From an uncultured Solirubrobacteraceae bacterium (GTDB lineage: Bacteria; Actinomycetota; Thermoleophilia; Solirubrobacterales; Solirubrobacteraceae): a DNA stretch of 64,000 nucleotides. The DNA is taken from NCBI GenBank assembly GCA_964588985.1, contig CAZPQW010000016.1, forward strand, positions 15,452-79,451. The letters are read 5' to 3'. Position 1 is the stretch's first letter, and every line of letters starts with the position of its first letter. Made by a program: the position numbers and the translations under genes. This document shows positions 5,110 through 60,670 of this stretch, one piece after another. The notes beneath the pieces are model-generated. The model worked only from the letters and a program-made list of their open reading frames with translations, had not been told where the DNA came from and did not search any database.

Positions 5110-5244
5110 TGCCTGGGAGTGAGCGTCGCCGACCGCTGGTCAAGCGTCAATTGATGACGCGTGAACCGCGCTGCGGTCACCGTAGCTGCTTGGCTGGTCA
5201 TATTGCGGGGACGAATCCACGGGAAGGGCGCTCACGACAAGGCG

Positions 5245-5272
5245 CAGTCCTCGACCCTCAGTCCTCGACCCT
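5245..5272. repeat. Perfect 14-bp tandem duplication CAGTCCTCGACCCT x2
   Basis: Read directly at 5245-5258 and 5259-5272. Confidence 0.85.
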
Positions 5273-5403
5273 CTTGGTTTGCACTGACGGCCCAGTCGGC
5301 CCCCGCCACTGCAGCACACTCAGAGCGCTGTGGAGTCTGCGGATGTTGTGCCAGGTCTCGATGTAACCGTGCAAATCAAAAGCAATGATATAGAATTACA
5401 CGG

Positions 5404-7367: not shown

Positions 7368-7481
7368 ATCACGACGCAACTGCGGCCGAAACCCGACTGC
7401 ACCGCAACCCGGGCGCGAGGCCTCCCCTTGGCCCCGCGCCCGACCCCGTCTCCTGCGGCGACTCCCCCAGCCGCCGACCCC

Positions 7482-44313: not shown

Positions 44314-46197
44314 ATGAAACCGAGACTCGTCAAACGAATCGCATCCAGCGCCCTAGGACTGATCGTCCTGGGGCTCGTGTGGTTCTACACGGCACCGACG
44401 GGCTTCGGCGGCTCCACGACCTACGTGGTCACACACGGAGTCAGCATGGAACCTCGCTTCCACACGGGCGACCTCGCGATCGTTCGCAGCCAGAGCAGCT
44501 ACCACGTGGGCGAAGTCGTCGCCTACGAGAGCAAGATGCTCGGCACCGTCGTGCTGCACCGGATCATCGGCAAGACCGGCGACCGGTACCTGTTCAAGGG
44601 CGACAACAACCACTTCATCGACTTCGAACATCCGACCGCCAAGCAGCTGGTCGGCTCGCTGCGGCTGCACATCGCGGGCGCGGGCGCGGAGTTCCAGTCG
44701 ATCCGATCCCCGGCGCTCGTCGGGATCCTCGTCGCCGTCGCGATCCTACTGCTCACCGGAGGCGTGTTCACCAAACGCCGCAGGCGCAGGCGCAGGCAGG
44801 CGCAGGACGATGTGCAGACCACCCAGCACCAGCCGATGCGAGCACTGAAGCGCCCCTCCGAGCACGCGACCGGCGTACTCACGGTCGGCCTGATCGCCCT
44901 GTTCCCGTTCGTGCTGCTCGCGCTGCTCGCGTTCACCCGTCCGCCCACCGCACGGCGGCCCTCAGAAATCTCCTACAAGCAGAGCGGCAAGCTCTCATAC
45001 TCGGCGCACGCGACGCCTGGACCGACCTACGCGAACAACGTCGCCCAGACCGGCGACCCGCTCTTCACACGCGTCGTCAACGACGTCGACCTGCACTTCG
45101 AGTACCGGCTCGACACGACCGCCAAGCAGTCGCTCGCCGGAGCCGCCTACATGTCCGCGAACGTCGCATCGACGAGCGGCTGGCACACGACGCTCGCGCT
45201 CGGCGGCACCACCCGCTTCCACGGCAACCGCGCGACCGTCGACGCGACGCTCGGCCTGAACTCGCTTTTCGACCTGCTCCATCGCGTCCAGGCCACCACG
45301 GGGGTCAGCAGCGGCTACACGCTCACCCTCGTTCCCCACGTCAGCACGCACGGGACGATCGACTCCAAGCCGCTGCACGCGACGTTCGCGCCGCAGATTC
45401 CCTTCACCGTCACCCCGCTCGAGGTCGAGCCCGTGGCGGCCAGTACCAGCACGACCACCACCACCGACGCGAAACCAGCGAAGAGCCCCTTCGCGCCCGC
45501 CGCGTCCGGCACGGTGAAGGGAACCGACTACAAGCCGCTCTACCTCCCGCTCGGGTTCGCGCGTCCGTCCGTGTCCACCGCGCGCCGTGTCGCGCTGGGC
45601 GGGATCGCGCTCGTCGTGCTCGTGCTGCTCGGGGTCCTCGCCCTCCCCCGGCCACGACGCAAGGCCGAGTCGACGACCATCCGTTCGCGTTACGGGCGCA
45701 TGGTCGTGCAGGTGGATCGCGTCTGGCAGCTGCCCGGGGTGCCAGTGATCGACGTCGCGGACATGGACGCGCTCGCTCGGATCGCCGAACACTACGATCG
45801 CTCGATCCTGCACGAGACCACCGACGAAGGCGAGGCCTTCTGGGTCACCGACGAGAGCGGCCAGTTCCGCTACGCGATCGGCGTGTGGGCGCCCGCGGCG
45901 CTTGCCCCGGAGGCGATCGGCGAGCAGATCGCGGCCGAGGCTCCCCTCTACCCGGAGCCAGAGGCGCCGGCCGAGGAGCTTCCGTACGAACCGTTCACCG
46001 GCCAGGCCCACACCGCCGAGATCCCGCTCGGCGGGTTGGTGTCCGTGTATGAGACCCAGCCCGCGCCCGAGATCTTCGCGAGCGCCCCGGTCGTGGAGGA
46101 CTGGGCCGCCCACGACGCCGCCGACGCGATCGTGCGCGAATGGCGCGCGGGGTGGGACACGGCGGATGTGACGCGGACGTCGAGCAGCCCCGTCTGA
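44314..46197 (+). CDS. SipW-type signal peptidase I (S26B) fused to a large DUF5305-like C-terminal region
   Basis: GVSMEP (Ser), GDL, VLHR (His), KGDNN..D; extra TMs, beta-rich domain, acidic tail. Confidence 0.85.
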   Translation: MKPRLVKRIASSALGLIVLGLVWFYTAPTGFGGSTTYVVTHGVSMEPRFHTGDLAIVRSQSSYHVGEVVAYESKMLGTVVLHRIIGKTGDRYLFKGDNNHFIDFEHPTAKQLVGSLRLHIAGAGAEFQSIRSPALVGILVAVAILLLTGGVFTKRRRRRRRQAQDDVQTTQHQPMRALKRPSEHATGVLTVGLIALFPFVLLALLAFTRPPTARRPSEISYKQSGKLSYSAHATPGPTYANNVAQTGDPLFTRVVNDVDLHFEYRLDTTAKQSLAGAAYMSANVASTSGWHTTLALGGTTRFHGNRATVDATLGLNSLFDLLHRVQATTGVSSGYTLTLVPHVSTHGTIDSKPLHATFAPQIPFTVTPLEVEPVAASTSTTTTTDAKPAKSPFAPAASGTVKGTDYKPLYLPLGFARPSVSTARRVALGGIALVVLVLLGVLALPRPRRKAESTTIRSRYGRMVVQVDRVWQLPGVPVIDVADMDALARIAEHYDRSILHETTDEGEAFWVTDESGQFRYAIGVWAPAALAPEAIGEQIAAEAPLYPEPEAPAEELPYEPFTGQAHTAEIPLGGLVSVYETQPAPEIFASAPVVEDWAAHDAADAIVREWRAGWDTADVTRTSSSPV

Positions 46198-46226
46198 GCA
46201 CCGCGTCGATCTTCGCGAAGCCCGCC

Positions 46227-47702
46227 TTACGCCGGAGAGGCTCCGCGACTCGCAAGCTGTCCTACGAACCGCACCGCCCCTGGCATCCGGCGCGCGAGCG
46301 CAACGGCAACACGATCTGAGCGGCGCATGTACCCTGCCGCCCCGTCGAGCTCGGCCTGCGGTGCGCGCTCCTCATCCAGAGCGTAGAGGCGCCATGAGCC
46401 GGGAACGCCCTTCAGCTCGTGCTCGCCGCGGCTCGTGAACAACATGTTCGAGCCGACGACGAGCTCCTTGACAGTCGAAGAGACCACGATCTCGCCGGGT
46501 TCCGCGAGCGCGCCGACGCGGGCGCCGATGTGGACGGCCAAACCACCGAGATCGTCACCGACCACCTCGCACTCGCCGGAGTGGATACCGCTGCGCAAAC
46601 GTATTCCGAGCTCCGCGACGCCCTCGCGTATCGCCTCAGCGCAGCGCATCGCGATCGCCGGCCCGTCGAACGCGGACAACGACCCGTCACCGATGTGCTT
46701 CACGACTCGGCCGCCGTGCTCGGATACGGTCCTGTCTACGAGTTGGTCGTGGCGCTCCAGCACCTCTCGCCAGGCGCGATCGCCGAGCTCCGCCGCGCGC
46801 GACGTCGAGGCCACGATGTCCGTGAACAGCACGGTCGCCAGTATCCGGTTCGGCTCTGTGCGGTGCACGGCGCCGGTGACGAACCGCTCGACCTCCTCCA
46901 CCAGCCCATCGGCGAACCAGAAGGCGTGATCGACACCCGGGAGCGTGACGAGGCGGGCGCCGGTTATCCCATCCGCAAGCTGCTGGCCGGCCTCCACCGG
47001 AATGATGCTGTCGTCGACCGCATGCACCACAAGCGTCGGCATGCGCACCGCCGACAGGACGTCGCGCACATCGATCCGTACCACGGTTTCGATGAGGGCT
47101 CGGGCCATTCGCGGGCTCGCCGCGGCCCTCGCGAACATCCCGAACCCGCGCTTCTGCGACTCGGTCATGGTCACGCTCGGGGCCAGGGTCTTCATCAGCA
47201 TGCCCCCGTCACCCCAATGGTCGAGTATCTCGTCGAAATCCTCGAAGCTGCGTTCCGCGCGCTGGAGGACCTCAGCTGGCCACGTCTCGCGGGCAGCCTC
47301 CATCGCGCATGCGAACGCCCCGAACAGCACCAGCAGCGAGACCCGCTCCGGATGCATCGCTGCCATCAGCACCGCCGCGGGACCACCCTCCGAGACACCC
47401 AAGAGCGCGGCCCGGCGCGAGCCCGCCGCGTCAAGGACCGCGTCCATGTCGGCCACGCGCTCCTCGAGCGTCGGCAGCTGCCGGACCGGGTCCGACAGAC
47501 CGGTGCCGGGCTTGTCGTAGATGATCAGCCGCGCGAATGAAGCAAGGCGGCCCATGAAGCGCGCCATCGCAGGCTCTGCCCACTGCAGATCCAAGTGCGA
47601 GATGAAGCCCGGCGACAGGAGCAGATCGACCGGACCGTCGCCCACCACCTGATAGGCGATCGAGATCCCGTCTCGCTCGACGTACTGCGTCTGCGGCTGC
47701 AC
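46227..47702 (-). CDS. Alpha/beta hydrolase + class III cyclase fusion (LipJ-like)
   Basis: IAYQVVG, GTGLSD, GVSEGG; FTDIVAST, KHIGDG, VHIGARV, ELKGVPG. Confidence 0.92.
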   Translation of the reverse strand: MQPQTQYVERDGISIAYQVVGDGPVDLLLSPGFISHLDLQWAEPAMARFMGRLASFARLIIYDKPGTGLSDPVRQLPTLEERVADMDAVLDAAGSRRAALLGVSEGGPAAVLMAAMHPERVSLLVLFGAFACAMEAARETWPAEVLQRAERSFEDFDEILDHWGDGGMLMKTLAPSVTMTESQKRGFGMFARAAASPRMARALIETVVRIDVRDVLSAVRMPTLVVHAVDDSIIPVEAGQQLADGITGARLVTLPGVDHAFWFADGLVEEVERFVTGAVHRTEPNRILATVLFTDIVASTSRAAELGDRAWREVLERHDQLVDRTVSEHGGRVVKHIGDGSLSAFDGPAIAMRCAEAIREGVAELGIRLRSGIHSGECEVVGDDLGGLAVHIGARVGALAEPGEIVVSSTVKELVVGSNMLFTSRGEHELKGVPGSWRLYALDEERAPQAELDGAAGYMRRSDRVAVALARRMPGAVRFVGQLASRGASPA

Positions 47703-47911
47703 GACAACGAGTCTACGCTCGCGAGGACGACAAATGTCGAATGCGCGGCTAGTTCAGGTGTTGGGAACTTCACTACACAGGTCCACAGCCATCGGGCTCC
47801 GTATCTTGAGAAAATCGCGCAAATGCCGATAACAAGCGCAAATCGCGTAGATCACGCTATAATGATCTCGACCTCGCTCAGTGATCAAAAGCCTTTCGGA
47901 AGGAACCAGCA

Positions 47912-48181
47912 ATGTCCGCTGTCGGCTCACAACCAAGGCTGCTCTCCACAAAGCAGGCCGCCGAGCTGCTCAACGTCAGCAGACGCACGATCCTCAACTG
48001 GATCGAGGCGGAGAAGATTCCCTACCTCAAGCTGCCAGGTGGGGACTACCGCGTCCCACTCGCCGGCCTGCTCGCCTCGCTGTCCGGCACCTACCGCCTG
48101 GATGAGGAGATCCGGGCGCTGGATCAGCGATTCGCAGGAGTCAGCGACCAAGACGTACAAGCCGCTCTCGCAGACCTCTAG
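47912..48181 (+). CDS. HTH_17/excisionase-family DNA-binding protein (putative antitoxin)
   Basis: LLSTKQAAELLNVSRRTILNWIE..KIP...PGG.YR. Confidence 0.85.
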   Translation: MSAVGSQPRLLSTKQAAELLNVSRRTILNWIEAEKIPYLKLPGGDYRVPLAGLLASLSGTYRLDEEIRALDQRFAGVSDQDVQAALADL

Positions 48182-48213
48182 CCTCGAGATCGGCGTCCGG
48201 TAGACCATCGCCA

Positions 48214-48894
48214 GTGCGTCCCGTCGTGCTAGACACCAGCGTGATCCTGCCGGCGGTCATCTCCCCGAGGGGCTACCGCCGACGCTTCTGGGTGCTGCTG
48301 GCGTTCGGCGCACTCGCCGAACGACGCGACCTCGCCCGCCTGCAAGACGGAGCACCACGAGCTGGCGCACACGAGGCACTGCGCGGGCATGACATCGCCT
48401 CGCTGGCAGCACAGGCGGAAGCCAGATATCAGCGCCTCCGTGACGCCCTGCCGTCCAGCTGCCCCGATCACTGGCGACTCATCGGCTCGCGCCCTCTACT
48501 CGCCGAGTACGAGCGCAAGCTGCACGAGATCGGGCCGAGACTCGATCCCGACCTCCGCCCCACCGACATCGAAACGATCAGACGACAGATCGAGGCAGTG
48601 TGCGTGGACATGACCGACGACTTCGACCCCGAGCTGATCCCGACCTACACGGCCGACCGCAAAGACGACCCCGTAATCCACACAGCTCTGCTCGCCGACG
48701 CCACATGGCTGATCGCCGACGACAAGAGGCACATCTCCACCGACCCCACGGGGATCACCGAGTACCAGCTACCCGGAACGACTCATCGCGTGAGCGCGCT
48801 CACCTTCAGCAGCTTCCTCAACCAGCTCACCGAAGTGGATCTCGACGACATCGACCCGAGCCTGATCCAGTCGGCGTTCGCGCCAATCCGCTAA
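48214..48894 (+). CDS. PIN-domain protein (putative VapC-like toxin)
   Basis: VVLDTSV, LAEY, DRKDDPVIHTA, LIADDKRH. Confidence 0.82.
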   Translation: MRPVVLDTSVILPAVISPRGYRRRFWVLLAFGALAERRDLARLQDGAPRAGAHEALRGHDIASLAAQAEARYQRLRDALPSSCPDHWRLIGSRPLLAEYERKLHEIGPRLDPDLRPTDIETIRRQIEAVCVDMTDDFDPELIPTYTADRKDDPVIHTALLADATWLIADDKRHISTDPTGITEYQLPGTTHRVSALTFSSFLNQLTEVDLDDIDPSLIQSAFAPIR

Positions 48895-49284
48895 ACCGAT
48901 CTACGAAGCTACGGCTTCAAAGGTGTTGAACGAGATGACGAAGGCGACGCCTGGCGCGCATACAAGCTCCTTCAGATACCGCTCCCGTGGGATGTCTTTA
49001 CCGAGCGCAGCCGGAACCTGCTGAACAGGGTGAGCGATCCTCGCTTGCCAGCCACACGGGTCGAGACGCGAGACCCGAGTTCGTGGGCTGGTTCGGTTGT
49101 GCCACGGTACGAACAGCTACGCGATCAGTACGCAACCTGGGAGGCCAACCCAGACAAAAAGCTCGCATCCGCCGGCGAACAGGGCGTAGCCCGCTTCAAT
49201 CGACTCATTGCGAGAGAACGAGAGCGCGAGGCCAGTGAAGACGACGATTGGAAATGGCTCCGCCCCGTAGCCCGGGTGTCCTGA
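48895..49284 (+). pseudogene. Orphan 3' remnant of a larger gene
   Basis: Open for 129 codons directly after the PIN stop, no convincing start/RBS; SWAGSVVPRYE...EREREASED tail. Confidence 0.45.
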
Positions 49285-49353
49285 GACGTCTTGGTCAGTC
49301 GTGAGTACACCGCGTCGCACAAGCGGCAACGCACGCCGGGTGGCCATTGCCGC

Positions 49354-50238
49354 CTACGAAAGTGCGCGCTCGGCTTCGGCAGCCAGGCGTCCCACGGAGT
49401 TCGCCGACGCGGAGCTGCCAGCCCGCGCGATTTCGGTGATAGCCTGCTTTATCTGAGCCGCTTCTCGGCCGAGTCGCGTTTCTCCTGACGCTCCAAGGAC
49501 AAGAAAGTAACCGTGCACGAGCGTCGCAATATTCTGGACATCGCCATCGTCTGCGTTGCCACGTCTCCACCATTGGCATAGGTTCTCCCACGCCACGACA
49601 ATACGGTCGTCGGTAAGGTAGTCGGCTACGTCATTGACGAGAGTGTCTCGTACCTTGTCGAGAACCCCCGCCATGACCTCGCGAGGCGGGCTCTTGCCTG
49701 CGCTTCTGATAGCGAACATGTCGGTTCCAAGCTGGAAGAAGGCCAGCAGATCGTCTCCCGCGAACTGAAGCAGGGCCATGATACGGCCCCGGGTGACGTC
49801 GTGCTTGGCTGGCTGGGCCTCGCGCGCGATGTCAACTAGCCCGCGACTGATGCCAATCGACTCCCCGGTAGCGATCATTGCCTCGACGTCTCGGTCCGTA
49901 GTGGCACCGCGAGCCGCTGCTGCTTGAAAGTTGTAAGAGAACTCACCCAAGCGGTAGGCGGCCCTGCACCGCGCCGCTATTTCCCGCCGCAAATCGTCGA
50001 GCCTTCGGCGATCTGACGTCGTCGTGATCTCGGCGAAAGCCACCCCGATACCACCAGCCAGCAGCGCGCCAGCGACCAGATTCCTTGCATCCTGGCCGAG
50101 ATACACTAGCTCGTAAACGAACACGCCCGCACCCACCGACAGCACTGCGAGTGCCAGGTTATACAGCCGAATGTGCTTTCGCGTAGACCAGCGTTGGATG
50201 GTCGCTAGACGCTGGCGGACAGTCGCGATGTAACCCAT
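49354..50238 (-). CDS. Hypothetical 2-TM protein with helical C-terminal domain
   Basis: Two hydrophobic segments near the N-terminus; 294-aa ORF. Confidence 0.75.
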   Translation of the reverse strand: MGYIATVRQRLATIQRWSTRKHIRLYNLALAVLSVGAGVFVYELVYLGQDARNLVAGALLAGGIGVAFAEITTTSDRRRLDDLRREIAARCRAAYRLGEFSYNFQAAAARGATTDRDVEAMIATGESIGISRGLVDIAREAQPAKHDVTRGRIMALLQFAGDDLLAFFQLGTDMFAIRSAGKSPPREVMAGVLDKVRDTLVNDVADYLTDDRIVVAWENLCQWWRRGNADDGDVQNIATLVHGYFLVLGASGETRLGREAAQIKQAITEIARAGSSASANSVGRLAAEAERALS

Positions 50239-50343
50239 GGGTAGATCCTAGGCCATGTACGTTCGTGTCAATACGTCGCACAATCGGCGATGTAAGCCAC
50301 TCGGGAGCCAAGACGTAGTGCCATCAGCGCGCGACGCCCTTCG

Positions 50344-50898
50344 CTATGCGCCAAACAAGTCAGCTCGCCGCTGGGAGCTGACAGTGATCCAGTTTTCACT
50401 CGCGATCATTTGAGCCTCGTAAGCGGCCACGCCCTCGATCCCCGGTGTATATGCCACTCGCACCGTCTCATCCGCGCGCAGCGAGATCAAGCCAACTCTT
50501 TGCCCATGAATGTACTCATAGATTTCGAATGAACCAGCAAGACACGTGTAGATGTCGTCAGCTGACTTTGTGATGTCCACGCTGTTTGAGCCTCGCGCAT
50601 AGAATTCCCACGGCCCTTTGCATGTACCGACCAACCAGCAGCTGGTTCGATACTTTCCGTTCGGCGGCCGCAGAATCGCCCCCCAGACCTCCCCGCCGTA
50701 TACCAAGACCTCTCCCTCGTCCGTCATCTCGACGGCGAAGTTAGACTCAGGCCCGAATTTGTATTGGCTACCGTCGTCTGACCTAACTTCAGCTACGCCA
50801 CTATCGTTTGTAGTGTACAACGTGCCGGCCGTCAGCTTGATACCAGGCTCCAAAGCTGGCTCGAGTCCCGACGCCTTAGTCAGTATGTAAGCGGGCAT
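50344..50898 (-). CDS. Soluble FecR-like beta-domain protein
   Basis: GGAGG RBS; L.AG.LYTT..SG.AEV...DGS....GPES resembles the FecR repeat start; no signal peptide. Confidence 0.65.
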   Translation of the reverse strand: MPAYILTKASGLEPALEPGIKLTAGTLYTTNDSGVAEVRSDDGSQYKFGPESNFAVEMTDEGEVLVYGGEVWGAILRPPNGKYRTSCWLVGTCKGPWEFYARGSNSVDITKSADDIYTCLAGSFEIYEYIHGQRVGLISLRADETVRVAYTPGIEGVAAYEAQMIASENWITVSSQRRADLFGA

Positions 50899-51024
50899 AT
50901 GTATCCTCCGTTTAGATGTGAAGCGGCGATAAAGACAGGATGCAGCCTACCCAGCGATTGCCCCAATGCACTACGACGTTGGATCGCATAACCAAGTATT
51001 CGCTGTTCTTCGGGCGGGATTGGC

Positions 51025-53154
51025 TCAAGAGTGGGCGCCAGGCTCTTCCTCATTGAGCGGTTCGCAAACCTGCTCCTTCTTGTCATCAGCGAGGGGAGCG
51101 TGTGGCTTCTCCGCGACGTACGTCAAGAAGTCTGCATCAGCGCTATACCAATTGGGATCAGTCGCGACAGCCTTCGGAGAGCTCGACTCAAGGTCAGCGT
51201 ACACACGCACCTTGTGAAATCCCGCGTCCATGAGAATCTGAGCAAGCTGTCCCTTTCTGAATGGATACATCCGAAGCGCACCGACCTCGCGTCTATCAAG
51301 CTCTTCGAGCAATTGCGGAGTAAGAACCTCGACTGATCGAAGCTGATGGTCGAAGCTATAGTCGCTCGCGTAGTAGCGAAACGTCACACCATCCTCGGCA
51401 ATTGTCTTCGGGCAAGCCCGTATTTGATCACCGCAGTACATGACCCGGTTATGGTAGGGAAAATGGCGGACTGGATTACGCAAGATGGTTTGCACGTCAT
51501 CGGGATCCATGAAATGTGCAAAGTTCCGCTCATCGATGACAATTCGTCCTCCAGGACGAAGTACATCGTAAAATGCATCCATTACGCGTTTCTGCTGCTC
51601 GACGCTAGTGACTAGACACAGTGAATTGCCGAGTACAAGCATCGTGTCGAAGAAGTGCCCGAACTGTGCTGGAAAGTGACGCCAGTCGTGCGTATACACA
51701 GGAACCCGACGACGTCCTACCTTCTCGCCGATAATTCTTCGGTAAACGGGCTCAATCTCATTAAGGCTTATGTCGTAACCGTGTTCGGCCAGCCAGAGCC
51801 CATCGGTACCAATGCCTGCCGCGGCATCTAGAATTGCGCCTCCACGATTCGGGCGCAAAATCGAATCGAAAAACGGGCCGAGTTTCTCCATCCGGATGTC
51901 GGGATTCATGAAACTCTCCCAAGCGAGGCAGAGGGGTTTATGAAAGATCTCTGGAACTGCTGCTTTGAGGGGCAGTGCCATCGCTTCCGGCGTTTCATCG
52001 CCGCTAGCGAGTCCATCCTTAATCACGTGAATTAACTCCGTACACTGATCGTACCAGTTATCACCGGGAAATACCATCCAGAGATGTACTGTTTGCGGCT
52101 CCTCACTCTCGCAGAAAAGGAGCGCATACTGGTCGTACCAAACAGCGACATCCACGGTGGGCAGCGGCTCGCCACCAATACGCTCGGCGACGATACCTAT
52201 CGCACGGTCCGCCTGCGCTCGATCCATGTGCCAAAGCTGGACGTTGAATTCTTCGTGCCAATCGAGGAAGCGACCGTATCCAGTCTCGTAGTGGTCTATG
52301 TAGTCGTCACGGAAGCGATCATGAGCACCGATTAGGATTCGTGTGTTAGGCGGAGCTGTGCCGTGTCGCGAGAGCATCTGACCGTGAGCGCGAAGATAGT
52401 TAGGATAGATCGCGACGAACTGGCTTGGAAGATGGCTATCGGTACCGTCATATCGCCCTTCGCCAAAAGCGAAACTTTGCTCAGTCCAGAACCGAACCTC
52501 AGCGATATCCAGCTCTGCGCCTTCTTGTGAAAGTATGGCCTTAATTTGAATATCGAGGCGGCCAAGATGGCGGTTAACAAACGCCAACAGTGTCCCACGC
52601 ACCGGCCCCTGGGCCGATGCGGCAATTAGATAGAGATTCCTCACGAGGGTGCCAACCATCAGGTTCGTAACCTGGGACACTAGAAGATAAGAGACAAGCA
52701 AGATGGCGATTGCGAGAGGCACTTCGCCTCCCAATCCGGAGACTTGCACGTGGAATGCCTTGGAGATGCCGATCAATCCAACAGCGGCAAGGCCAGTCGC
52801 GATGCCATCAACAAGGAGAGGACCGTTTGCACGCATTCGGAGCCACCATGCGGCGATACGCGGGAGCAACCGCGTGTGCAAAACGCGGACGATAATGCGC
52901 TGAGAGACAAAATAGGTGATGACGAACGCTATACCGCCAATTACGAAGTCGCTGTCCTGGAAGAGGCGTCGCGTTTGCGTGTGCACGAATGCGAGGACCC
53001 CATAGGCAGCTCCGGCCCCAATGAGCAGTTGAACAAACTCTCGTCGTGCCAAGACGTGCAAGCGCGTGGTTACTCCGCTCCACGCGTTCCTCAAGAACGC
53101 TTCAGCAGGTTCGAGTCTCCGGAGCGCCTCCTGGGGATGATTTTGATCTGGCAC
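51025..53154 (-). CDS. 4-TM + uncharacterised domain + class I SAM methyltransferase (glycine/sarcosine N-methyltransferase-like)
   Basis: ILDAAAGIG, DWR, FDTMLVLGNSL, FYDVLRPGGRIVIDERNF, MYCG, FRY, MYPFRK. GTG start inferred. Confidence 0.8.
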   Translation of the reverse strand: MPDQNHPQEALRRLEPAEAFLRNAWSGVTTRLHVLARREFVQLLIGAGAAYGVLAFVHTQTRRLFQDSDFVIGGIAFVITYFVSQRIIVRVLHTRLLPRIAAWWLRMRANGPLLVDGIATGLAAVGLIGISKAFHVQVSGLGGEVPLAIAILLVSYLLVSQVTNLMVGTLVRNLYLIAASAQGPVRGTLLAFVNRHLGRLDIQIKAILSQEGAELDIAEVRFWTEQSFAFGEGRYDGTDSHLPSQFVAIYPNYLRAHGQMLSRHGTAPPNTRILIGAHDRFRDDYIDHYETGYGRFLDWHEEFNVQLWHMDRAQADRAIGIVAERIGGEPLPTVDVAVWYDQYALLFCESEEPQTVHLWMVFPGDNWYDQCTELIHVIKDGLASGDETPEAMALPLKAAVPEIFHKPLCLAWESFMNPDIRMEKLGPFFDSILRPNRGGAILDAAAGIGTDGLWLAEHGYDISLNEIEPVYRRIIGEKVGRRRVPVYTHDWRHFPAQFGHFFDTMLVLGNSLCLVTSVEQQKRVMDAFYDVLRPGGRIVIDERNFAHFMDPDDVQTILRNPVRHFPYHNRVMYCGDQIRACPKTIAEDGVTFRYYASDYSFDHQLRSVEVLTPQLLEELDRREVGALRMYPFRKGQLAQILMDAGFHKVRVYADLESSSPKAVATDPNWYSADADFLTYVAEKPHAPLADDKKEQVCEPLNEEEPGAHS

Positions 53155-53234
53155 GCGCGGGAGGGTACCATCCAGCGCGCCCGATAGATGGGCGAGTTCG
53201 GGATGATGGAGTCGGGGGCGATGGTGCGTGCTGG

Positions 53235-53658
53235 ATGCGTCGCATCGGCGAACTCCTTGAGCTGCACAAGGCGGCGTGTCCGAGAACGTGATGCGCCGCA
53301 CGACCAAGCGCATCGAAACCGAGGAAACCACACTCAACGACCTGCTGAGCCGCTCGAAGGTCTCGAAGACATCCACAGTCGCTGGAGGACGCACTGACCC
53401 TCACCGAGAAGCCGCTCGAAAGCTACCTGGAGGCAAGCGATCTCGGGCGACGCGTCCTCAACCAATTCTTCTACAGCGAGATCCGCGTCGGAGAGGACGC
53501 GTCACCGAGGCAACCATCGAGAAGCCCTACGAGCGCATCATCGCGCGACGCCTGGTCCGCCGCCGCCCCGAGAACTGCCCGCCCGTCCAGCAGCGCTGCA
53601 CCCAGCCAACCCCCGACCCCTTTTCTTTGAGACCGGGGTTTGACCGCGAACGAAATGA
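53235..53658 (+). pseudogene. Frameshifted C-terminal remnant of a large serine recombinase
   Basis: Pieces across frames: LLELHK; RIETEE..LNDLL; LEDALTL..PLESYLEASDLGRRVLNQFFYSEIRV; EKPYERI. Ends at the att fragment. Confidence 0.55.
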
Positions 53659-53702
<44 letters not shown>

Positions 53703-53842
53703 AGCCTCACCCCTGATTTACTGGACCGTAAACCAGCATTTTAGCGGGACTTTTGTCGAGTCGCTAGGGTTCGATCGAGCTGGTTGGGGAGAAAACGCGG
53801 GAGAAAAAACGTCCGCACGAGGCGCTATCGTTTGCGGTACGA

Positions 53843-55006
53843 ATGAGCCCTGTAACGGCACCTCCAATCGCCTCCGTCTCCGGCCACGTCAAACGCCGCG
53901 TCGGGAAGCGACGCACGACTTGGTACGCGAAGTGGCGCGACGCGACGGGCGAGCAGTTCGAACGCAAGATCGGGCTCGACTGGACCGAGAAGGGACCAGC
54001 ACCGCCAGGCTTCCTGCGAGACAAGGACGCTACGGCAGCGCTCGAGGCGATCCTCACCGACGCTCGACGCGGCGCCCTGGAGCAGACCCGAACCGGACTG
54101 ACCACGACGATGCTCGCCGAGGACTGGATCGCCTACGGCATCCACGAGCGCGACTGGAAGCCCTCAACACTCTCGGACAACCGCTCCGTCGTAAAAGCGC
54201 ACATCAAGCCGACTTTTGGCTCGCGGCGGCCCGAGAAGATCACCGCCGAGCAGATCGAGGATTGGCGCGACGAGCTCGTTGAGGAGCATGGCGTCAGCAG
54301 GCGCACGGCCAACAAGGCGCTCGTCATCCTCGGCGCGATTCTCGAGCGTGGCCGCAAGCACGGCCTGGTGACCAACGTGGCGCGGGAGGTTCCCAAGCTC
54401 CGCGATCGCTACGACCCCAACGACTACGACTTCTTCTCGCCCGCGGAGATCCAGAAGCTCGCCGGCGCCACCGAGTCAGACCAGGACGGCGCGATCTTCC
54501 GCGTGGCAGCGTTCACGGGCCTTCGGATGGGCGAGCTGATCGCCCTACGCTGGCGCGACGTCGACTTCGACGGCGAGTCCCTGCACGTCTACGGCTCCTA
54601 CTCACTCGGCGAGCTGACCACACCAAAGTCCGGGCTCACGCGCACAGTCCCGATGGCCGAGCAGGTCATCGCTACGCTCAAGGCCCAAAAGCGTCGCCTC
54701 GCCGACACCGGCCGCGAGAGCCTCGTCTTCCCCGGCACACGCGGCGTATACCTCGATGGGTCGGCCCTACGCCGTCGCTACAAGAAGGCGCTCACCAGCG
54801 CGAAGCTGCGCCCGCTGCGCTTCCACGATCTACGCCACACCTTCGGCTCGATCGCCATCAGCGAGGCCACCATCATCCAGGTCCAAGCATGGATGGGCCA
54901 TGCCGACGTACAGACCACGATGAAGTACATGCACCACCGCAGCCGCGCAGACGACGCCAAACTCCTCTCAGCGGCGTTCCGTTCTAAACGCTCACATCTG
55001 GCATGA
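53843..55006 (+). CDS. Tyrosine recombinase/integrase
   Basis: TGLRMGELIALRW, TPKSG, FHDLRHTF, MGHAD..TTMKY. Confidence 0.96.
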   Translation: MSPVTAPPIASVSGHVKRRVGKRRTTWYAKWRDATGEQFERKIGLDWTEKGPAPPGFLRDKDATAALEAILTDARRGALEQTRTGLTTTMLAEDWIAYGIHERDWKPSTLSDNRSVVKAHIKPTFGSRRPEKITAEQIEDWRDELVEEHGVSRRTANKALVILGAILERGRKHGLVTNVAREVPKLRDRYDPNDYDFFSPAEIQKLAGATESDQDGAIFRVAAFTGLRMGELIALRWRDVDFDGESLHVYGSYSLGELTTPKSGLTRTVPMAEQVIATLKAQKRRLADTGRESLVFPGTRGVYLDGSALRRRYKKALTSAKLRPLRFHDLRHTFGSIAISEATIIQVQAWMGHADVQTTMKYMHHRSRADDAKLLSAAFRSKRSHLA

Positions 55007-55150
55007 TCATCGGGTGCAGGCCGAGGACTGTTCCGGTGCTTTGTTGACTTGCTCGATCGGGAGGTCTTCTGGCCCGTAGATTGTAGTTGTCGTCCCGTCG
55101 GCCATCAAACCACGGGGCCCCCTGCTTGGCTGCCTTCTGCCAGCACAGGC
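55007..55150 (-). pseudogene. Degenerate RHS-core fragment
   Basis: YGPEDLPIEQV matches YGPNGLPIEQI of the RHS gene; shared 11-mers TGCTCGATCGG and TGGCCCGTAGA (55050-55080 vs 56337-56367). Confidence 0.7.
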
Positions 55151-55306
55151 CGGTCGCTCGACGCTGAGCGCCCCGAACCCGAACAGCAGCATCGTCACGC
55201 TCTCTTCGGCAGCCAGCTTCTCAGGGTTGCGGAAGTTCGTCTCGATGCCATTAGCCACTATCGAGGAAGTCGAAACGGTAGATGAAGCTAAGGCCTCAAC
55301 GACTCG

Positions 55307-55549
55307 CTACTTCTCGTCCTCCGCGAGCGTTTCTGACACACAGTTCTTCCAGTCCCCGAGTGCTGCGGGATCCACTGAACTACCGTCGACCTCAAGTTCA
55401 ACGTCACCGACTAGCGTCCTTACCGGCCCCGAACCGCTCGTGCGATCAAAGTACCCGGACAAGAACTTGGCCATCGCACGAAACCCCTGGCTGGCCGTGA
55501 GCGTCACTCCGTCCAAGTCTGAGAGCTTGACAGGCTCCTGCGTTGTCAT
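55307..55549 (-). CDS. Putative immunity protein for the RHS toxin
   Basis: 80-aa acidic ORF 15 bp after the toxin stop, with AAGGAG RBS. Confidence 0.7.
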   Translation of the reverse strand: MTTQEPVKLSDLDGVTLTASQGFRAMAKFLSGYFDRTSGSGPVRTLVGDVELEVDGSSVDPAALGDWKNCVSETLAEDEK

Positions 55550-55564
55550 CTTGCCCTCTCCCTT

Positions 55565-58500
55565 TCAAGGCAATGGCACATTATTGACACCTCCGTTTGT
55601 GATAGCTCCTTCAAACACCTTTGCCCACACCTGCGTTCCGTTCGGAAGCGTCTCGCGATAGAGGGTCTCACCACCTCCGCCGGTTCGGACGTAGTTCACG
55701 GACTTCACAACGCCTTCAATAAGCGCCCGGTTCTCCGGCGTATCCTCAGCGAGATGGCCTGCCGCATCGCGGAAGATGTGCTCGGTAGCACTCTCGGCGA
55801 TCCTCGCTCCGTCCGCGCCGATCTCGGCCTCGCCCTCGCCGGGGATGAGGACTGCGGTGGCGAGTCCTGTGTATCCGCCGGCTTGGTAGGCGCTGGAGCA
55901 GGTGTTGACGTTGTCGTTGCCGAGTTGTTCGCGGACCCATTTTGTGCCGCCGAATGTGATGGTGTCGCCCCATCCGGCGATCCCTTCGCCGACTTCTTCA
56001 AAGAAACCGAGCCCAGTAGGGTCAGCGTGATTGATCGGGTTGTCGCCTGCGTAGTTGTAGCGTTCGTGGGTGATCGCCGCGAGCGGATCGACGCTGAGGA
56101 ATTGCACCGTCTTGGGGTCGTAGACCCTTGCGCGCATGTAGATGAGTCCGGTGTCGGTTGAGGTCAGCTGGGCGTCGTAGCCGAGTGGTGCCATCGCGGT
56201 GCCGGTGTGCCCGGTCTGGTTGCCGTAGGCGTCGTAGGTAAACGACGCTTCTTTCGCCCCAGTGGTTTTGGTCATCAGCCGTGTGCTGCCTTGCTGGTCG
56301 TGGTGGAGGTAGAGCACCGTCCCTCCGCTTGATATCTGCTCGATCGGTAGCCCATTTGGCCCGTAGACGTAGCTGTTGAGGCCGCCCGTGAGGAGCAGAG
56401 GCAGTGGTGCGCTCGCGTCCCATACGAAGTAGGTCGTGATTCCGGAGATTGTTTGGGAGGCTCTCATGCTGTTGCCGTCGTAGGCGTAGGTGTCTTTGAT
56501 GGCGGTAGTTTCGCCTTCAGCGGGTCTTTCTACTGATATCAGGTTCCCGGCTTGGTCATAGCCATATGTTGTAGCGGGGCCTGGTGTCGGCGTGGTCTTC
56601 GTGCGTTGGCCTGAGCTGTTGTATTCGTATTTCAGGCTCGGGCCGGTTTCGATCTCGTCGGCTTTGTCGTAGGTGTAGCTGCCGGTCCCGATTTTGATGG
56701 GGTTGTTCCCGCCGCCGTACTGGTAGCTGGTTCCTGCGCCTTTGGTGAGCCGGCTGTCGGTGTCGTATTCGTTCGCTGGTTTTTCTTCTCCGGGTAGCCC
56801 TTTCGAGGTGGCTTCTTTGACCTGTCCGTTGTTGTCGCGGGTGTAGGCAAGCGACGCGAGTGTTTCCGCGCCCTTCATCATCTTGATTTCACTCACGCGG
56901 TCCGCTTCGTCGTAGGTGTATTTGTCTTCGTTGCTTGTCCCGGACGGGAAGGTCGTGGTGGCCTGGTCGGAGTCGGGGTCGTAGGAGAATTTGGTGGCGT
57001 TCCCGAGCCAGTCGGTGGTCTTGCTAAGGCGACCCGTTTTGTCGTATTCGCGAGTAACGGCTTTGCTGCTGGGATACGTGATCTTGGTTGGCTCGTTGGC
57101 TAGGTCGTATTCGTAGCTGACTTTTTCGCTGTGCTCGTTCTGGGCTTCGGTGAGCCTGTCCAGTTCGTCGTATTTGTAGGTTGTTTCGCCTGTCCCGTCG
57201 GTCATGTGAGTCAGCTTGTCGTCACCGTTGTATTCGTATTTGACGGCTGGTGTTTTTCCATCGGAGTACGTGACTTCTTTCGGCCTGTTTGCCGGGTCGT
57301 AGGTGTAGGTCGTGGTGCGCGCGGCGGGGTCCGTTACCGTTTTGAGGTTTCCGGCCGGGTCGTATTCCTTTTTGGTTTTCCGTTCCTTAGCGTCGATGAC
57401 TTCGGTGACTTGCTCAAGCAGGTTGCGCACGTATTTGGTGACGTGTTTATCGCCATCGGTTTGGCTCGTGATCTGCCCTTCGCTGTCGTACCCGGTTTCT
57501 GTGGTGTTGCCTTTCGGCTCTTCGGTGATCGTCAGCTCGTTGTCCGCGTCATAGGTGTATTTCGTTTTGTTGGTGTTCGGGTCGGTCAGCGTTTCGAGGT
57601 TGCCGTTGGCGTCGTAGGCGTATTTCGTGATGTGCCCGAGCGGGTCGGTGATCTTGATCGCGCGGCCCTGCGCATCGAGTTCGAACGTGGTCGTGTATTT
57701 GCTCGGTTCGCCACCTTCGACGTTGCCTCGTGGGCTGACCGTCGAGGTCTCCTGCGAGTCTTCGTTATACGCCCAGGTGCGCTTGTCGCCTTCAGGGTCC
57801 GTTTCGCCTGACTTGTCGCCCTTGCTGTCGTATTCGAATTTCGTGACGTGTTTGAGCGGGTCTTCCACGCTTTCCAGATCACCATTCGCGGCGTATTTGG
57901 ATTTCGTGGCTTGTGTTGTCGCGCCCGGTGCTGGACGTTCGATGACTTCGGGGTTGCCGTGCGTGTCGCGTTTGGTTGTCGTCGTCTCGCCATCGGGGGT
58001 CGTGTGCGTCAACACGTCATGCGTCGTGTTGTAAGTCCATTTCGTTTCGTTACCGTTCGCATCCTTTTCGCTGATGCGATCGCCAGCCGTGTTATACGTG
58101 TATTTCGTGATGTGGCTGTTCGGGTCGGTAACCGAGACTAGATTTTCGCCTTCGCCGTATTTCATTGTGGTCGTGACTTCCGAGCCCGTACCCGATGCGT
58201 GCGTGACGCTCGTGGGCTGATACACCACATTGAACTTCTCAACGGTCGTGGAGCCGTTCGGTTCGGTGATTGTCGTTTCGGGGTTCCCAGCTTCTTTTCC
58301 GTAGCTCCATTTCCGTACTCGCCCGAGCGCGTCTTTTTGTTTGACGACCCGATGGGCCGCGTTGTATTCGGTGCTCACGACATTCCCGCGCCCGTCGATC
58401 ATTTCCGTCATTTCGTGCCCAGCATTGTATTTGAACCGCCAACGCGGGCTCGATTCGCCGGGCTCGGTGACACTCGCGAGGTTTTTCGATTCATAACCGT

Positions 58501-60670
58501 ATTTCACGACGTGCCCCATCGGGTCCGTGATACTTTCGACCTCTTTTTCGCCGTTATACGCAAACGTCAGTTTCCGGCCAGCAGCATCGCTGATCGATTC
58601 GACCAGCCCTTCCCCGCTCCATTTCACGGTCGTGGCATTACCATTGCGATCCGTGCGCGCCGTCAACTGACCGGCTTCGTTGAACGTCAGCTTGCTCTGA
58701 CTGGGCAGTGTATACACATAGCTGCTGCCTTCTTTGACGAGCGTCGCCTTCGTTCGTAGGTCGATCGCCTTGAATTTGCCTTCAATGATGAGAAAACGCG
58801 CCGACGAGCCGTTGTCTTCATACACCGCGACACTCGGCCAGCCACACGTAACGCCGCCGCCTCCGCCTTCGGCTCCCTGCACAGGAAAACAAGGCGTCGA
58901 GCCTTCAAGATGAGCACTCGCCGGACCCGTCCACCCATACCCAAACGGACCACCACTAGCACCCTGCAGCGACGCACGACGCGAGTTATACGTACGCGTG
59001 ACCGCAAGCCCAGGCCCACGACCACCAACCGAGAGATCGGTCTGACTCTCAACCTGATTACCAGTCGCGCAATTCACCGGCTTACCCAACAAACACGGTT
59101 CGTCAAGCAGTTTCGCGGGATTACGCAAACCATAGGATTCGCTTTCCCATTCTTCTTCTTCCTGCGACGTCGGAAGGACCGTAAGCAAAATCGATTCAAC
59201 CGAGATACTCCCACCATCAGTAGCCGTAGCACCTTCTTCGCTACCAGCCGGCACACCCGTCAAACCAAAACCAATCGAAACCCAGGAAAGGCTTTTACAC
59301 GCCAGTTCTTCCGCCGGGTTCGCCCAATGAAACGCCAAGCTCGAAGGTATCGCACCCGTTTCACTTTCAGTCCCCCGATTACAAGCCGACAACTCCCACC
59401 AAGTCCCCGACCCCGTGGCCGGCGATTCACTCCTCGTACCAGAAATACCAAGAAATTCCACCGTTTCCGGTTTCATGTGCGCCGGCACAGGCATTTTCAA
59501 ATACCCTTCAATCCCACCATTCACAAAGACTTTCGGTGCGACTTCAAGCGGAAATTTCGTAGCCGGCGCAGAAACAAAATACGCACCATGAGACCATGTG
59601 ATGAATTCCGCGAATATCGCGTTGAATTCCGTACCAAACGTCAAACCACCAAGCGGCAAAACCACAGTCGGATCAACAAGCACCGGATACGCCACATCCA
59701 TCTGACGATGCGCGACCGTCAACAACAGTTCATCCCCGACCACCAGCATCGAGACCGGCACCACAGACCCCTGAGCATCCCGCGCACTCGGCGGATTGAT
59801 ACCCGCGATCAACACACCATCACGAACAACCTCCGCACCACCATCCGCAGTCATCTCAAGGCTCGCGCCCGCCGGCAAGCTCACCCGATAACGCACCTCT
59901 TCCGGGCTCAAACGCGAACGCAACACCGCAAAGAACTCAGCCCCATGAACCGACGGAGCAACAGACCCATCCATATCCGTGCCGACCTCCGGGAAGAACA
60001 CACTCTGACCGCCCACAACCCGGCCACGCACATCGGCACCCTCAAGCGACACCCGCAACCCAGCACCACCAACGGCCACCCCGGCCGAGGAATCCCTCGC
60101 GATCGCCACACCCGTGACCGGAGCTACCGGCACGAACCCCGCGCCGCCCGCCTGCAGGCGAAGATCAACCGGACGCTTCCCGCCCCGACCATCAACACGC
60201 AACAGCGTAGTAGACCTCTCGATCTTCAAACCCCGAGAACCCCGCACGACAGCTTCGCTATCGCTCAAATACCGCACGACTCGACCCGACTTCGCGACCG
60301 ACACCGCCGGATTCACGCTCGCCCCCGCCAGCACCGAACCAAAATCACGCCGCAACAACCCCTCCGCACCAGCCGCCCCCAAACCATGAAACGCCATCAA
60401 CGAAGCCCGCCGCTGCGCCCGCATCCCAGGACCCGCCAACAACCGACGACGACGAGCAGCCCGCGCGTCCATCACCCGCAGCCGCGCCGCAGACACCCGA
60501 GACACACCCAGACCACCAGCCACAGCACCACCACCCCCCGCCCGACCAGACGCAGTACCAGCCACCACGAACACCAGAACCGCCGCGCACACCACCGCCG
60601 AAACAGCCACCCAGCGACCACGCGACCCACCCAGCGCCCGACGCCTCAGCCAATACCCTCTGGACAGCAC
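55565..60670 (-). CDS. Secreted RHS/YD-repeat polymorphic toxin
   Basis: Signal-like N-terminus, PVNCATGN...RTYNS...FGYGW (DUF6531-like), many YD repeats, RHS core ARVYDP...PINHADPTG, variable C-terminus. Confidence 0.95.
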   Translation of the reverse strand: MLSRGYWLRRRALGGSRGRWVAVSAVVCAAVLVFVVAGTASGRAGGGGAVAGGLGVSRVSAARLRVMDARAARRRRLLAGPGMRAQRRASLMAFHGLGAAGAEGLLRRDFGSVLAGASVNPAVSVAKSGRVVRYLSDSEAVVRGSRGLKIERSTTLLRVDGRGGKRPVDLRLQAGGAGFVPVAPVTGVAIARDSSAGVAVGGAGLRVSLEGADVRGRVVGGQSVFFPEVGTDMDGSVAPSVHGAEFFAVLRSRLSPEEVRYRVSLPAGASLEMTADGGAEVVRDGVLIAGINPPSARDAQGSVVPVSMLVVGDELLLTVAHRQMDVAYPVLVDPTVVLPLGGLTFGTEFNAIFAEFITWSHGAYFVSAPATKFPLEVAPKVFVNGGIEGYLKMPVPAHMKPETVEFLGISGTRSESPATGSGTWWELSACNRGTESETGAIPSSLAFHWANPAEELACKSLSWVSIGFGLTGVPAGSEEGATATDGGSISVESILLTVLPTSQEEEEWESESYGLRNPAKLLDEPCLLGKPVNCATGNQVESQTDLSVGGRGPGLAVTRTYNSRRASLQGASGGPFGYGWTGPASAHLEGSTPCFPVQGAEGGGGGVTCGWPSVAVYEDNGSSARFLIIEGKFKAIDLRTKATLVKEGSSYVYTLPSQSKLTFNEAGQLTARTDRNGNATTVKWSGEGLVESISDAAGRKLTFAYNGEKEVESITDPMGHVVKYGYESKNLASVTEPGESSPRWRFKYNAGHEMTEMIDGRGNVVSTEYNAAHRVVKQKDALGRVRKWSYGKEAGNPETTITEPNGSTTVEKFNVVYQPTSVTHASGTGSEVTTTMKYGEGENLVSVTDPNSHITKYTYNTAGDRISEKDANGNETKWTYNTTHDVLTHTTPDGETTTTKRDTHGNPEVIERPAPGATTQATKSKYAANGDLESVEDPLKHVTKFEYDSKGDKSGETDPEGDKRTWAYNEDSQETSTVSPRGNVEGGEPSKYTTTFELDAQGRAIKITDPLGHITKYAYDANGNLETLTDPNTNKTKYTYDADNELTITEEPKGNTTETGYDSEGQITSQTDGDKHVTKYVRNLLEQVTEVIDAKERKTKKEYDPAGNLKTVTDPAARTTTYTYDPANRPKEVTYSDGKTPAVKYEYNGDDKLTHMTDGTGETTYKYDELDRLTEAQNEHSEKVSYEYDLANEPTKITYPSSKAVTREYDKTGRLSKTTDWLGNATKFSYDPDSDQATTTFPSGTSNEDKYTYDEADRVSEIKMMKGAETLASLAYTRDNNGQVKEATSKGLPGEEKPANEYDTDSRLTKGAGTSYQYGGGNNPIKIGTGSYTYDKADEIETGPSLKYEYNSSGQRTKTTPTPGPATTYGYDQAGNLISVERPAEGETTAIKDTYAYDGNSMRASQTISGITTYFVWDASAPLPLLLTGGLNSYVYGPNGLPIEQISSGGTVLYLHHDQQGSTRLMTKTTGAKEASFTYDAYGNQTGHTGTAMAPLGYDAQLTSTDTGLIYMRARVYDPKTVQFLSVDPLAAITHERYNYAGDNPINHADPTGLGFFEEVGEGIAGWGDTITFGGTKWVREQLGNDNVNTCSSAYQAGGYTGLATAVLIPGEGEAEIGADGARIAESATEHIFRDAAGHLAEDTPENRALIEGVVKSVNYVRTGGGGETLYRETLPNGTQVWAKVFEGAITNGGVNNVPLP

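Follow-up and report, generated by a model that had tools for sequence, protein, structure and literature searches.

The 64,000-nt stretch of DNA analysed here (the window; all coordinates are positions within it), which comes from an uncultured Solirubrobacteraceae bacterium, carries three neighbouring genes on its minus strand, referred to below as genes 1, 2 and 3. We find that gene 1 joins, in a single chain, a four-helix membrane anchor, a phospholipase D (PLD)-shaped domain and an S-adenosylmethionine (SAM)-dependent methyltransferase that resembles glycine/sarcosine N-methyltransferase (GSMT) and glycine N-methyltransferase (GNMT). It apparently represents a type of enzyme not described before, in which a methyltransferase for small molecules is anchored in the membrane and carries a PLD-shaped domain that lacks the HKD motif. 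Our best explanation is that gene 1 encodes a horizontally acquired, stand-alone, membrane-tethered N-methyltransferase of the amino-acid type, the pseudo-PLD domain of which binds a ligand and gates the N-terminal lid of the enzyme; we would set the chances for and against this explanation about equal. An initial annotation of the window had found the architecture of gene 1 unfamiliar, and a narrow full-text literature search, which cannot show that the architecture is unpublished, likewise found no description of it. Gene 1 and its parts are placed as follows:

51025-53154, minus strand: gene 1, 709 aa: four transmembrane (TM) helices and a helical stalk, then a PLD-fold domain lacking HKD and a SAM methyltransferase of the GSMT-like type
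52648-53040, minus strand: four hydrophobic TM segments (Kyte-Doolittle) that form the membrane anchor of gene 1 (residues 39-169)
51952-52602, minus strand: PLD-like domain of gene 1 with the second stalk helix, residues 185-401 (AlphaFold2 (AF2) model, structure search)
51085-51939, minus strand: class I SAM methyltransferase of the GSMT/GNMT type, residues 406-690 of gene 1 (Pfam Methyltransf_25)

The gene-1 frame is open upstream to 53394 (open reading frame (ORF) 51025-53394), and the start codon is uncertain, as it could be either the GTG at 53154, which gives the 709-aa protein and agrees with the 660-710 aa of full-length close homologues, or the ATG at 53313, which corresponds to the 762-aa database model of the protein. 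Kyte-Doolittle hydropathy agrees with the four TM helices first proposed, placing them at residues 39-58, 70-89, 112-131 and 138-169 with outside loops of ~11 and ~6 residues; given this even number of helices, both ends of the protein would be expected on the cytoplasmic side. The protein search returned 16 homologues of gene 1 besides itself. All of the sequence strings that the initial annotation had picked out (DWR, LGNS, IDERNF, YCG, MYPFRK, TRILI and DVAVWYDQYALL) are present in the gene-1 translation, and the absence of an HKD motif that it had reported also holds, the sequence containing no HxK(x)4D.

The middle domain of gene 1 had been likened to a catalytically dead PLD fold, a comparison that structure prediction bears out. 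The AF2 model, built for residues 140-405 from a 17-row alignment, comprises two long helices followed by an alpha/beta domain and has a predicted local distance difference test score (pLDDT) of 86.5 and a predicted template modelling score of 0.79. When it was compared with 48,161 PDB representatives using VIA-align, 22 chains were matched at Z >= 8, every one of them (22/22) from the PLD superfamily. The best structural neighbour is TrmBL2 (Z 12.0, root mean square deviation 3.0, 135 residues aligned), followed by NucT (Z 11.4), FAM83B DUF1669 (Z 11.1) and Nuc (Z 11.1); further matches within the superfamily include Zucchini, SauUSI, polyphosphate kinase, BfiI and TrmB (9.3-9.4), with phosphatidylserine synthase and bacterial PLDs at Z 8.2-9.7. 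Foldseek concurs, its top matches being TrmBL2, PLD, FAM83 and NucT. At the level of sequence, none of 17 family members matched a PLD-type Pfam family at E <= 1, and no PDB sequence matched the profile of the PLD-like family at E <= 10.

That profile, used alone, detects 328 representatives at E <= 0.001 (281 at E <= 1e-10) among 1.84 billion representatives of clusters formed at 50% identity; the family counts out of 150 given here and below refer to the best of these 328. Compared with the catalytic members of the PLD superfamily (Nuc/NucT, Zucchini, bacterial PLD, phosphatidylserine synthase and BfiI), which match in fold at Z 8.2-11.4, gene 1 lacks HxK(x)4D and has one PLD unit per chain. 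Throughout the family this motif is scarce, being found in one of the 17 aligned members, at a column not common to the other rows, and anywhere in the chain in five of the 150 representatives. Despite the loss of the HKD motif, residue conservation indicates that the domain is not degenerate and has a polar site of its own (Tyr, Ser, Pro, Arg, His and Asp): 99-100% of the 150 representatives retain each of the Tyr, Pro, Arg and His, and nearly as many the Asp and Ser. PLD-fold domains that are likewise non-catalytic are known from the C-terminus of TrmB/TrmBL2 and from FAM83 (DUF1669). These match gene 1 as a single PLD-fold unit at Z 9.3-12.0, and the matched TrmB chain was deposited as its sugar-binding domain; however, they show no sequence similarity to the PLD-like domain of gene 1, which is joined to TM helices and a methyltransferase instead of being tied to a DNA-binding domain or a kinase-docking role, as in TrmB/FAM83.

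While Pfam recognizes only generic class I methyltransferase domains in gene 1, the closest solved relatives of the C-terminal domain are MpGSMT (PDB 5gwx, E 1.7e-12; phmmer) and then GNMT, and the matches to 5gwx and to NCBIfam confirm that the motifs originally noted are those of a GSMT/GNMT-like methyltransferase. The domain shares with MpGSMT and GNMT the class I SAM fold, the DWR, LGNS, D-x-RN-aromatic, YCG and aromatic-P-aromatic-RK motifs, the Asn, Arg and two Tyr residues that serve in the holding and methylation of glycine/sarcosine, and the lid Trp. GSMT/GNMT-type enzymes are known as small soluble proteins, and chains of ~260-295 residues contrast with the 709 aa, four TM helices and PLD-like domain of gene 1. 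The published account of MpGSMT describes Arg167 and Tyr206 as holding the substrate carboxyl and Asn134 as holding the amine; Tyr185 is catalytic and, together with lid Tyr26, lines the methyl channel; and the N-terminal H1 helix (Tyr26, Trp34) rearranges to complete the active site, the lid regulating activity, such that a Y26F substitution lowers activity 74-fold (PMC5146677). Mapped through the 5gwx alignment (chain index minus 21), the MpGSMT residues have these counterparts in gene 1:

Asn134: N of LGNS
Arg167: R of DERNF
Tyr185: Y of YCG
Tyr206: first Y of FRYY
Trp34: W of WESF

All five equivalents are thus present in gene 1. They are also well kept in the family: across 74 methyltransferase domains, the Asn is found in 69, the Arg in 70, the Tyr185 equivalent in 62 (with Phe in five others) and the Trp in 73, the conservation of the Tyr206 equivalent having been judged in a 16-row alignment (A1). 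It is from the conserved Asn, Arg and Tyr residues that we would assign the substrate class of gene 1, namely a small acid-bearing amine, probably glycine- or amino-acid-like, with a betaine-type product.

Across the family, ~10-25 residues separate the end of the PLD-like domain from the Trp34 equivalent. Because this places the domain just upstream of an MpGSMT-type gating lid, we deem gating that depends on a ligand or a partner to be the most likely mode of action. The four TM helices, with their very short outside loops, would tether the gene-1 protein to the cytoplasmic face of the membrane, and a two-helix stalk would lead to the PLD-superfamily domain, which, although without HKD, has its own conserved polar site; by analogy with the sugar-binding domain of TrmB it may bind a small ligand, or else a partner in the membrane or in transport. 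This domain is joined directly to the N-terminal lid of the GSMT/GNMT-type methyltransferase, so that its state would gate SAM-dependent N-methylation of the amine. If the PLD-like domain does gate the lid, the protein would be a compact device linking SAM use or the synthesis of a betaine-type metabolite to signals from the membrane, transport or a ligand, and the gene-1 family would deserve a name. The sensor-gated methylation put forward in the initial annotation is in this respect a reasonable mechanism for gene 1 by itself.

The family occurs in several forms, which among the best 150 representatives are distributed as follows:

72 of 150: GSMT-like methyltransferase within the same chain
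78 of 150: no methyltransferase, mostly ~300 aa
128 of 150: at least one TM segment ahead of the PLD-like domain
90 of 150: two TM segments
4 of 150: four TM segments, as in gene 1

The significance of these counts is that a GSMT catalytic pocket is tied to an anchor and to a PLD-shaped domain not covered by Pfam in as many as 72 of the 150 best-matching clusters. Furthermore, at three of five PLD-only loci (L022, L027 and L028), a family methyltransferase gene directly follows the gene for the PLD-like protein, and this split pair closes an operon for a PotA/PotD/PotB/PotC-like ABC importer (L022:4883-9891, L027:165-3707 and L028:3263-8957). The tie to polyamine-type importers suggests an imported amine as the substrate of the split forms. 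Among the 19 unusually built representatives of the best 150 that were scanned with Pfam, three PLD-only proteins (P0077, P0161 and P0163) have an ABC importer permease domain ahead of the PLD-like domain, and in three others (P0114, P0126 and P0140) the PLD-methyltransferase pair is fused to an ATPase, of the HerA type in two cases and of the KaiC type in one; in these the ATPase is C-terminal and there are no TM helices. The N-terminus of P0016 had appeared cyclase-like from its motifs, an assignment that was dropped when no Pfam family matched at E <= 0.001. At L051:6353-10700, a 406-aa PLD-like member adjoins a 1107-aa B12-binding radical SAM protein and an HD/HD_assoc phosphohydrolase. 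Taken as a whole, the observed forms support the view that the gene-1 family is a self-contained module, consisting of an anchor, a pseudo-PLD domain and a GSMT-type methyltransferase, with a very sporadic distribution.

The prevalence of the anchor bears on a different substrate assignment, according to which gene 1 N-methylates a lipid head group that contains both an amine and a carboxylate (of the ornithine, homoserine/betaine or phosphatidylserine type), the anchor and the PLD-like domain holding the head group. Head groups of this kind are bound by lipid synthases of the PLD family, such as cardiolipin and phosphatidylserine synthase; the structural matches include phosphatidylserine synthase and bacterial PLDs, at the Z-scores given above; the anchor is present in 128 of the 150 representatives; and the pocket residues suit an amine plus a carboxylate. 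However, some forms of the family are soluble or fused to HerA or KaiC, the ties to PotABCD-like importers and the ABC permease fusions point to a soluble, imported substrate, and no lipid-synthesis genes adjoin gene 1 in the window, so that we consider methylation of a lipid unlikely.

Members of the family occur very sporadically. The PLD-like domain was found in none of 400 other genomes of the window's class, two genomes of the same genus included, and in two of 350 other genomes of the order that contains the genome of locus L001, the nearest genome relative. Relatives of genes 1, 2 and 3 were not found in viral contigs; plasmids yielded one match, 26% identical and confined to the methyltransferase part of gene 1, and none to genes 2 and 3. 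The window genome itself has a single copy of a gene-1 family member. This absence from 400 genomes of the class, a low G+C content, and an integrase gene and tRNA fragment that adjoin the three genes support the horizontal acquisition of gene 1. The ORF listing and the G+C profile confirm the three intact, co-oriented, lower-GC genes of the initial annotation: all are on the minus strand, with intergenic gaps of 126 and 105 nt, and G+C is 0.526-0.556 over 50500-52999 (genes 1 and 2) and 0.596-0.640 over 49000-50499 (the gene 3 region), compared with 0.666-0.710 over 44500-47499, where the genes to the left of the low-GC stretch lie. The features that mark the right-hand side are the following:

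53656-53702, minus strand: att-like remnant, 46 nt from the 3' part of tRNA-Arg(ACG) plus one flanking base
53843-55006, plus strand: tyrosine integrase gene (Pfam Phage_integrase, E 7e-26, and Phage_int_SAM_3), adjoining the tRNA fragment

The remnant is identical at 47 of 47 positions to the 3' part of the intact tRNA-Arg(ACG) of contig C24 of the same genome, this tRNA on a different contig being the only other copy of the sequence; neither ARAGORN nor Rfam called a tRNA at 53656-53702, and no second copy of the 47-nt sequence lies in the window between 46000 and 56000. The tRNA att site postulated at first can accordingly be described as a 47-nt tRNA-Arg(ACG) fragment with an adjoining tyrosine integrase gene and no intact tRNA called.

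Several relatives of gene 1 lie beside genes of the kinds found in defence islands:

L004: Mrr_cat, RNase_T, AAA_14/DUF4143 and DUF2779
L013: DUF4917 and caspase
L019: relative at 4791-7517, with an AAA_22 ATPase gene on one side and an OLD-TOPRIM gene on the other
L020: SIR2_2-TPR
L022: HerA

The L004 member (L004:7845-9632, identical in sequence to L026:1034-2821) belongs to a Methanoregula metagenome-assembled genome and has a G+C at third codon positions (GC3) of 0.21, compared with 0.4-0.8 for most of its neighbours and 0.31-0.39 for the ORFs just downstream; it seems to have been transferred recently into an island of the defence type. These neighbourhoods raise the question of whether gene 1 might be an anti-phage or anti-plasmid effector, in which a trigger sensed by the PLD-like domain would set off unchecked SAM burning, with a build-up of S-adenosylhomocysteine (SAH), or the making of a toxic methylated product, and so stop the infected cell from growing. 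GNMT can indeed burn SAM and build up SAH, and the mobile context, the very sporadic distribution, the low GC3 of the L004 relative and the fusions to HerA- or KaiC-type ATPases in three of the 19 unusual representatives scanned all speak in favour of such an effector. Conversely, other relatives are situated in plainly metabolic or transport operons, with PotABCD-like importers or HpcH aldolases, and no relatives were found in viral contigs. We know of no precedent for a defence based on a SAM sink, although no literature search was made for one.

The initial annotation had thought anti-phage defence plausible; PADLOC did not uphold that suggestion, as no known defence system matches. Gene 1 itself was matched by mad2 at 39.3 bits over 124 of 492 profile positions; since gene 1 contains no (D/N/S)PP(Y/F/W) motif, this match reflects the shared SAM-binding core and is no evidence of a MADS DNA methyltransferase. 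The MADS system is described as having eight genes (mad1-8), of which mad2 is a predicted N6 DNA methyltransferase (bioRxiv 10.1101/2023.03.30.534895). Within the window, the mad2 match of gene 1 and the mad1 match of a helix-turn-helix (HTH) gene at 47912-48181 (28.5 bits, most likely a generic HTH match) are both to generic parts, the SAM-binding core and HTH_17, and PADLOC found no match to mad3-8 among genes 2 and 3 and 14 neighbours, the 14 neighbours giving generic matches only. It is only through its mobile, sporadic context that gene 1 may be connected with defence, and we regard the effector explanation as distinctly unlikely. A broader version of it, which we hold to be quite improbable, sees the pseudo-PLD and GSMT-like pair as a scattered module for a gated methyl sink, a mobile-island effector that would collapse the SAM/SAH balance of an infected cell; the PLD-like domain would then supply or release the lid in response to a ligand, a transporter (as in the ABC-permease fusions) or a ring ATPase (as in the HerA/KaiC fusions). 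Were this true, it would represent a new effector chemistry for prokaryotic immunity.

We now turn to the two genes downstream of gene 1:

50344-50898, minus strand: gene 2, 184 aa, a soluble protein without TM segment or leader that has a FecR-like beta fold
49354-50238, minus strand: gene 3, 294 aa, with two TM helices and an all-helical remainder

Gene 2, the translation of which contains SCWLVGTC, has no hydrophobic segment by hydropathy and matches no Pfam family at E <= 0.01, PF04773 (FecR) included. In a structure search of the ESM Atlas, with predicted models on both sides of the comparison, it matched FecR-domain clusters with template modelling scores of 0.76-0.79 by query over 164-171 residues; 88-100% of the members of these clusters carry PF04773, and the feature score to a FecR cluster is 0.93. 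The predicted fold is consistent with the leaderless FecR-like protein of the initial annotation. FecR proteins typically carry an anti-sigma N-terminal part. Gene 2 is a 184-aa stand-alone domain, predicted to be cytoplasmic, that resembles FecR-domain proteins (PF04773) in fold but has neither the Pfam match nor a TM helix. Gene 3 has the two TM segments ascribed to it, as judged by hydropathy; its model has a pLDDT of 70.3, its best structural match (CAMP factor, Z 7.8) lies within helical noise, and neither Foldseek at E <= 0.001 nor the ESM Atlas returned a match.

The initial annotation had treated the three genes as one system, in which the FecR-like protein receives a methyl group or a signal from gene 1 and the 2-TM protein serves as output. 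Co-orientation, short gaps and a common lower G+C content are in keeping with this idea, as is the rarity of all three genes. A search of 5.8 billion proteins, limited to relatives sharing exact 5-residue words, yielded one relative of gene 2 (49% identical; P0019) and two of gene 3 (44%; P0021 and P0022); a search of 300 further genomes of the window's class did not reveal gene 3, and one of 400 further genomes of the phylum did not reveal its relative P0021. We compared 37 loci, 10 from species-representative genomes and 26 from metagenomes with gene-1 relatives; 23 of the loci cover more than the methyltransferase part, several are short, and L004/L026 and L021/L022 are duplicates. Searched by tblastn in these 37 loci, genes 2 and 3 gave no match below E = 1 except in the window's own locus. 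Locus L001, which has the closest relative with visible flanks (49% identity), encodes an unrelated multi-TM protein downstream of it. The contig of the gene-3 relative P0021 (1.9 Mb) differs in size from the contigs of all listed gene-1 relatives, and gene 2 has no relative from that source. Furthermore, the residues kept in the methyltransferase pocket are those for binding a small amino acid and give no hint of a protein as substrate. A complex prediction for gene 1 (residues 185-709) with gene 2 gave interface scores (ipSAE) of 0.00 and 0.00, which speak neither for nor against binding.

No other partner recurs either: among 114 neighbouring ORFs from 16 loci, Pfam revealed no recurring partner of the fused form, and a conserved operon partner for that form was rejected because the neighbours differ in every locus. 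The flanks of the closest gene-1 relatives are mostly out of view, the contigs of 13 close homologues (P0002-P0014) falling outside the neighbour comparison, which leaves the three-gene system some room. Nonetheless, we consider it decidedly improbable, given that none of the 37 loci pairs a gene-1 relative with a relative of gene 2 or 3; the attractive three-gene 'system' falls apart once neighbours are compared across loci, and the proposed sensor-gated methylation is not supported as a property of the three genes together. We infer that genes 2 and 3 are orphan cargo of the island and unrelated to gene 1.

The explanation that we prefer for gene 1, a stand-alone, membrane-tethered, lid-gated N-methyltransferase of the amino-acid type, has a number of observations weighing against it. 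The NCBIfam equivalog model NF051855 (GlySarMtaseBact) scores 80.4 bits against a cut-off of 350 bits, over profile positions 24-206 of 259. Position His138 of MpGSMT is Leu in the gene-1 family, and the residue eight positions ahead of the Trp34 equivalent, where lid Tyr26 would be expected, is Phe (a placement by spacing only, this region being unaligned). At the PLD-only loci L051 and L052, no family methyltransferase lies within ~6 kb, which means that the two domains are not always coupled. The occurrence of several relatives among defence-type genes and the HerA/KaiC ATPase fusions in a few relatives both fit a conflict role better than a metabolic one. Finally, three same-strand genes separated by gaps of 126 and 105 nt could still form one operon, and as L001 and L012 are the only closer relatives (41-49% identical) with visible flanks, the co-occurrence test is thin where it is most relevant.

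Certain of these observations count equally against a simpler possibility, that gene 1 is a plain orthologue of the betaine-pathway GSMT, serving osmoprotection, with an odd N-terminal extension. GSMTs are its best relatives among solved structures and NCBIfam models, and the glycine-binding residues are kept. The score of 80.4 bits is nevertheless far from the 350-bit cut-off, and His138 is replaced, and the lid Tyr26 appears to be, as described; in addition, no other GSMT-like gene in the window genome scores above 20 bits, the Pfam scan of the window showed no sarcosine/dimethylglycine methyltransferase beside gene 1 that could carry out the later steps of betaine synthesis, and 400 related genomes yielded no copy of the gene. 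A betaine-pathway orthologue is, in our judgement, very improbable, and the label 'glycine/sarcosine N-methyltransferase', which some sources attach to relatives of gene 1, is unwarranted without evidence.

Scans of the remainder of the locus were largely negative. Five small ORFs in or beside the flanks, where the initial annotation had placed gene remnants (four within the two flanks and the 80-codon upstream extension of the gene-1 frame), had no Pfam match at E <= 1 and so lend the remnants no support, and Rfam detected nothing in 46000-56000 at E <= 1. Neither promoter-like sites (1, versus a shuffle mean of 1.9) nor terminator-like sites (4, versus 3.8) were enriched over shuffles. All 21 sequencing runs that contain window DNA are labelled as rhizosphere metagenome, with no RNA run among them, and contigs from four runs across 45000-57000 are fragmentary, with joints that have sides of only 20-28 nt and are uninformative on excision or borders.

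On the opposite edge of the low-GC stretch from the integrase lies a pair of genes:

47912-48894, plus strand: HTH_17 (excisionase/AlpA-like) gene, then PIN_3 gene (Pfam)

This pair resembles a toxin-antitoxin or an excisionase-plus-nuclease pair. Just to the right of the integrase gene, in the same lower-GC stretch, 55565-60670 (minus strand) encodes an Rhs/YD-repeat protein of 1701 aa (RHS_repeat, DUF6531), after which an 80-aa ORF (55307-55549, minus strand) is a possible immunity gene, with a weak BT_2262-like_C match (E 7e-4). To the left, 46227-47702 (minus strand) encodes a 491-aa fusion of an alpha/beta hydrolase domain with a class III adenylate/guanylate cyclase domain that has weak PADLOC matches to Pycsar cyclase models (E 9e-5). 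The product of 44314-46197 (plus strand), which a 172-aa ORF precedes, is 627 aa long, has a Peptidase_S24-like domain at its N-terminus and weakly matches DUF5305.

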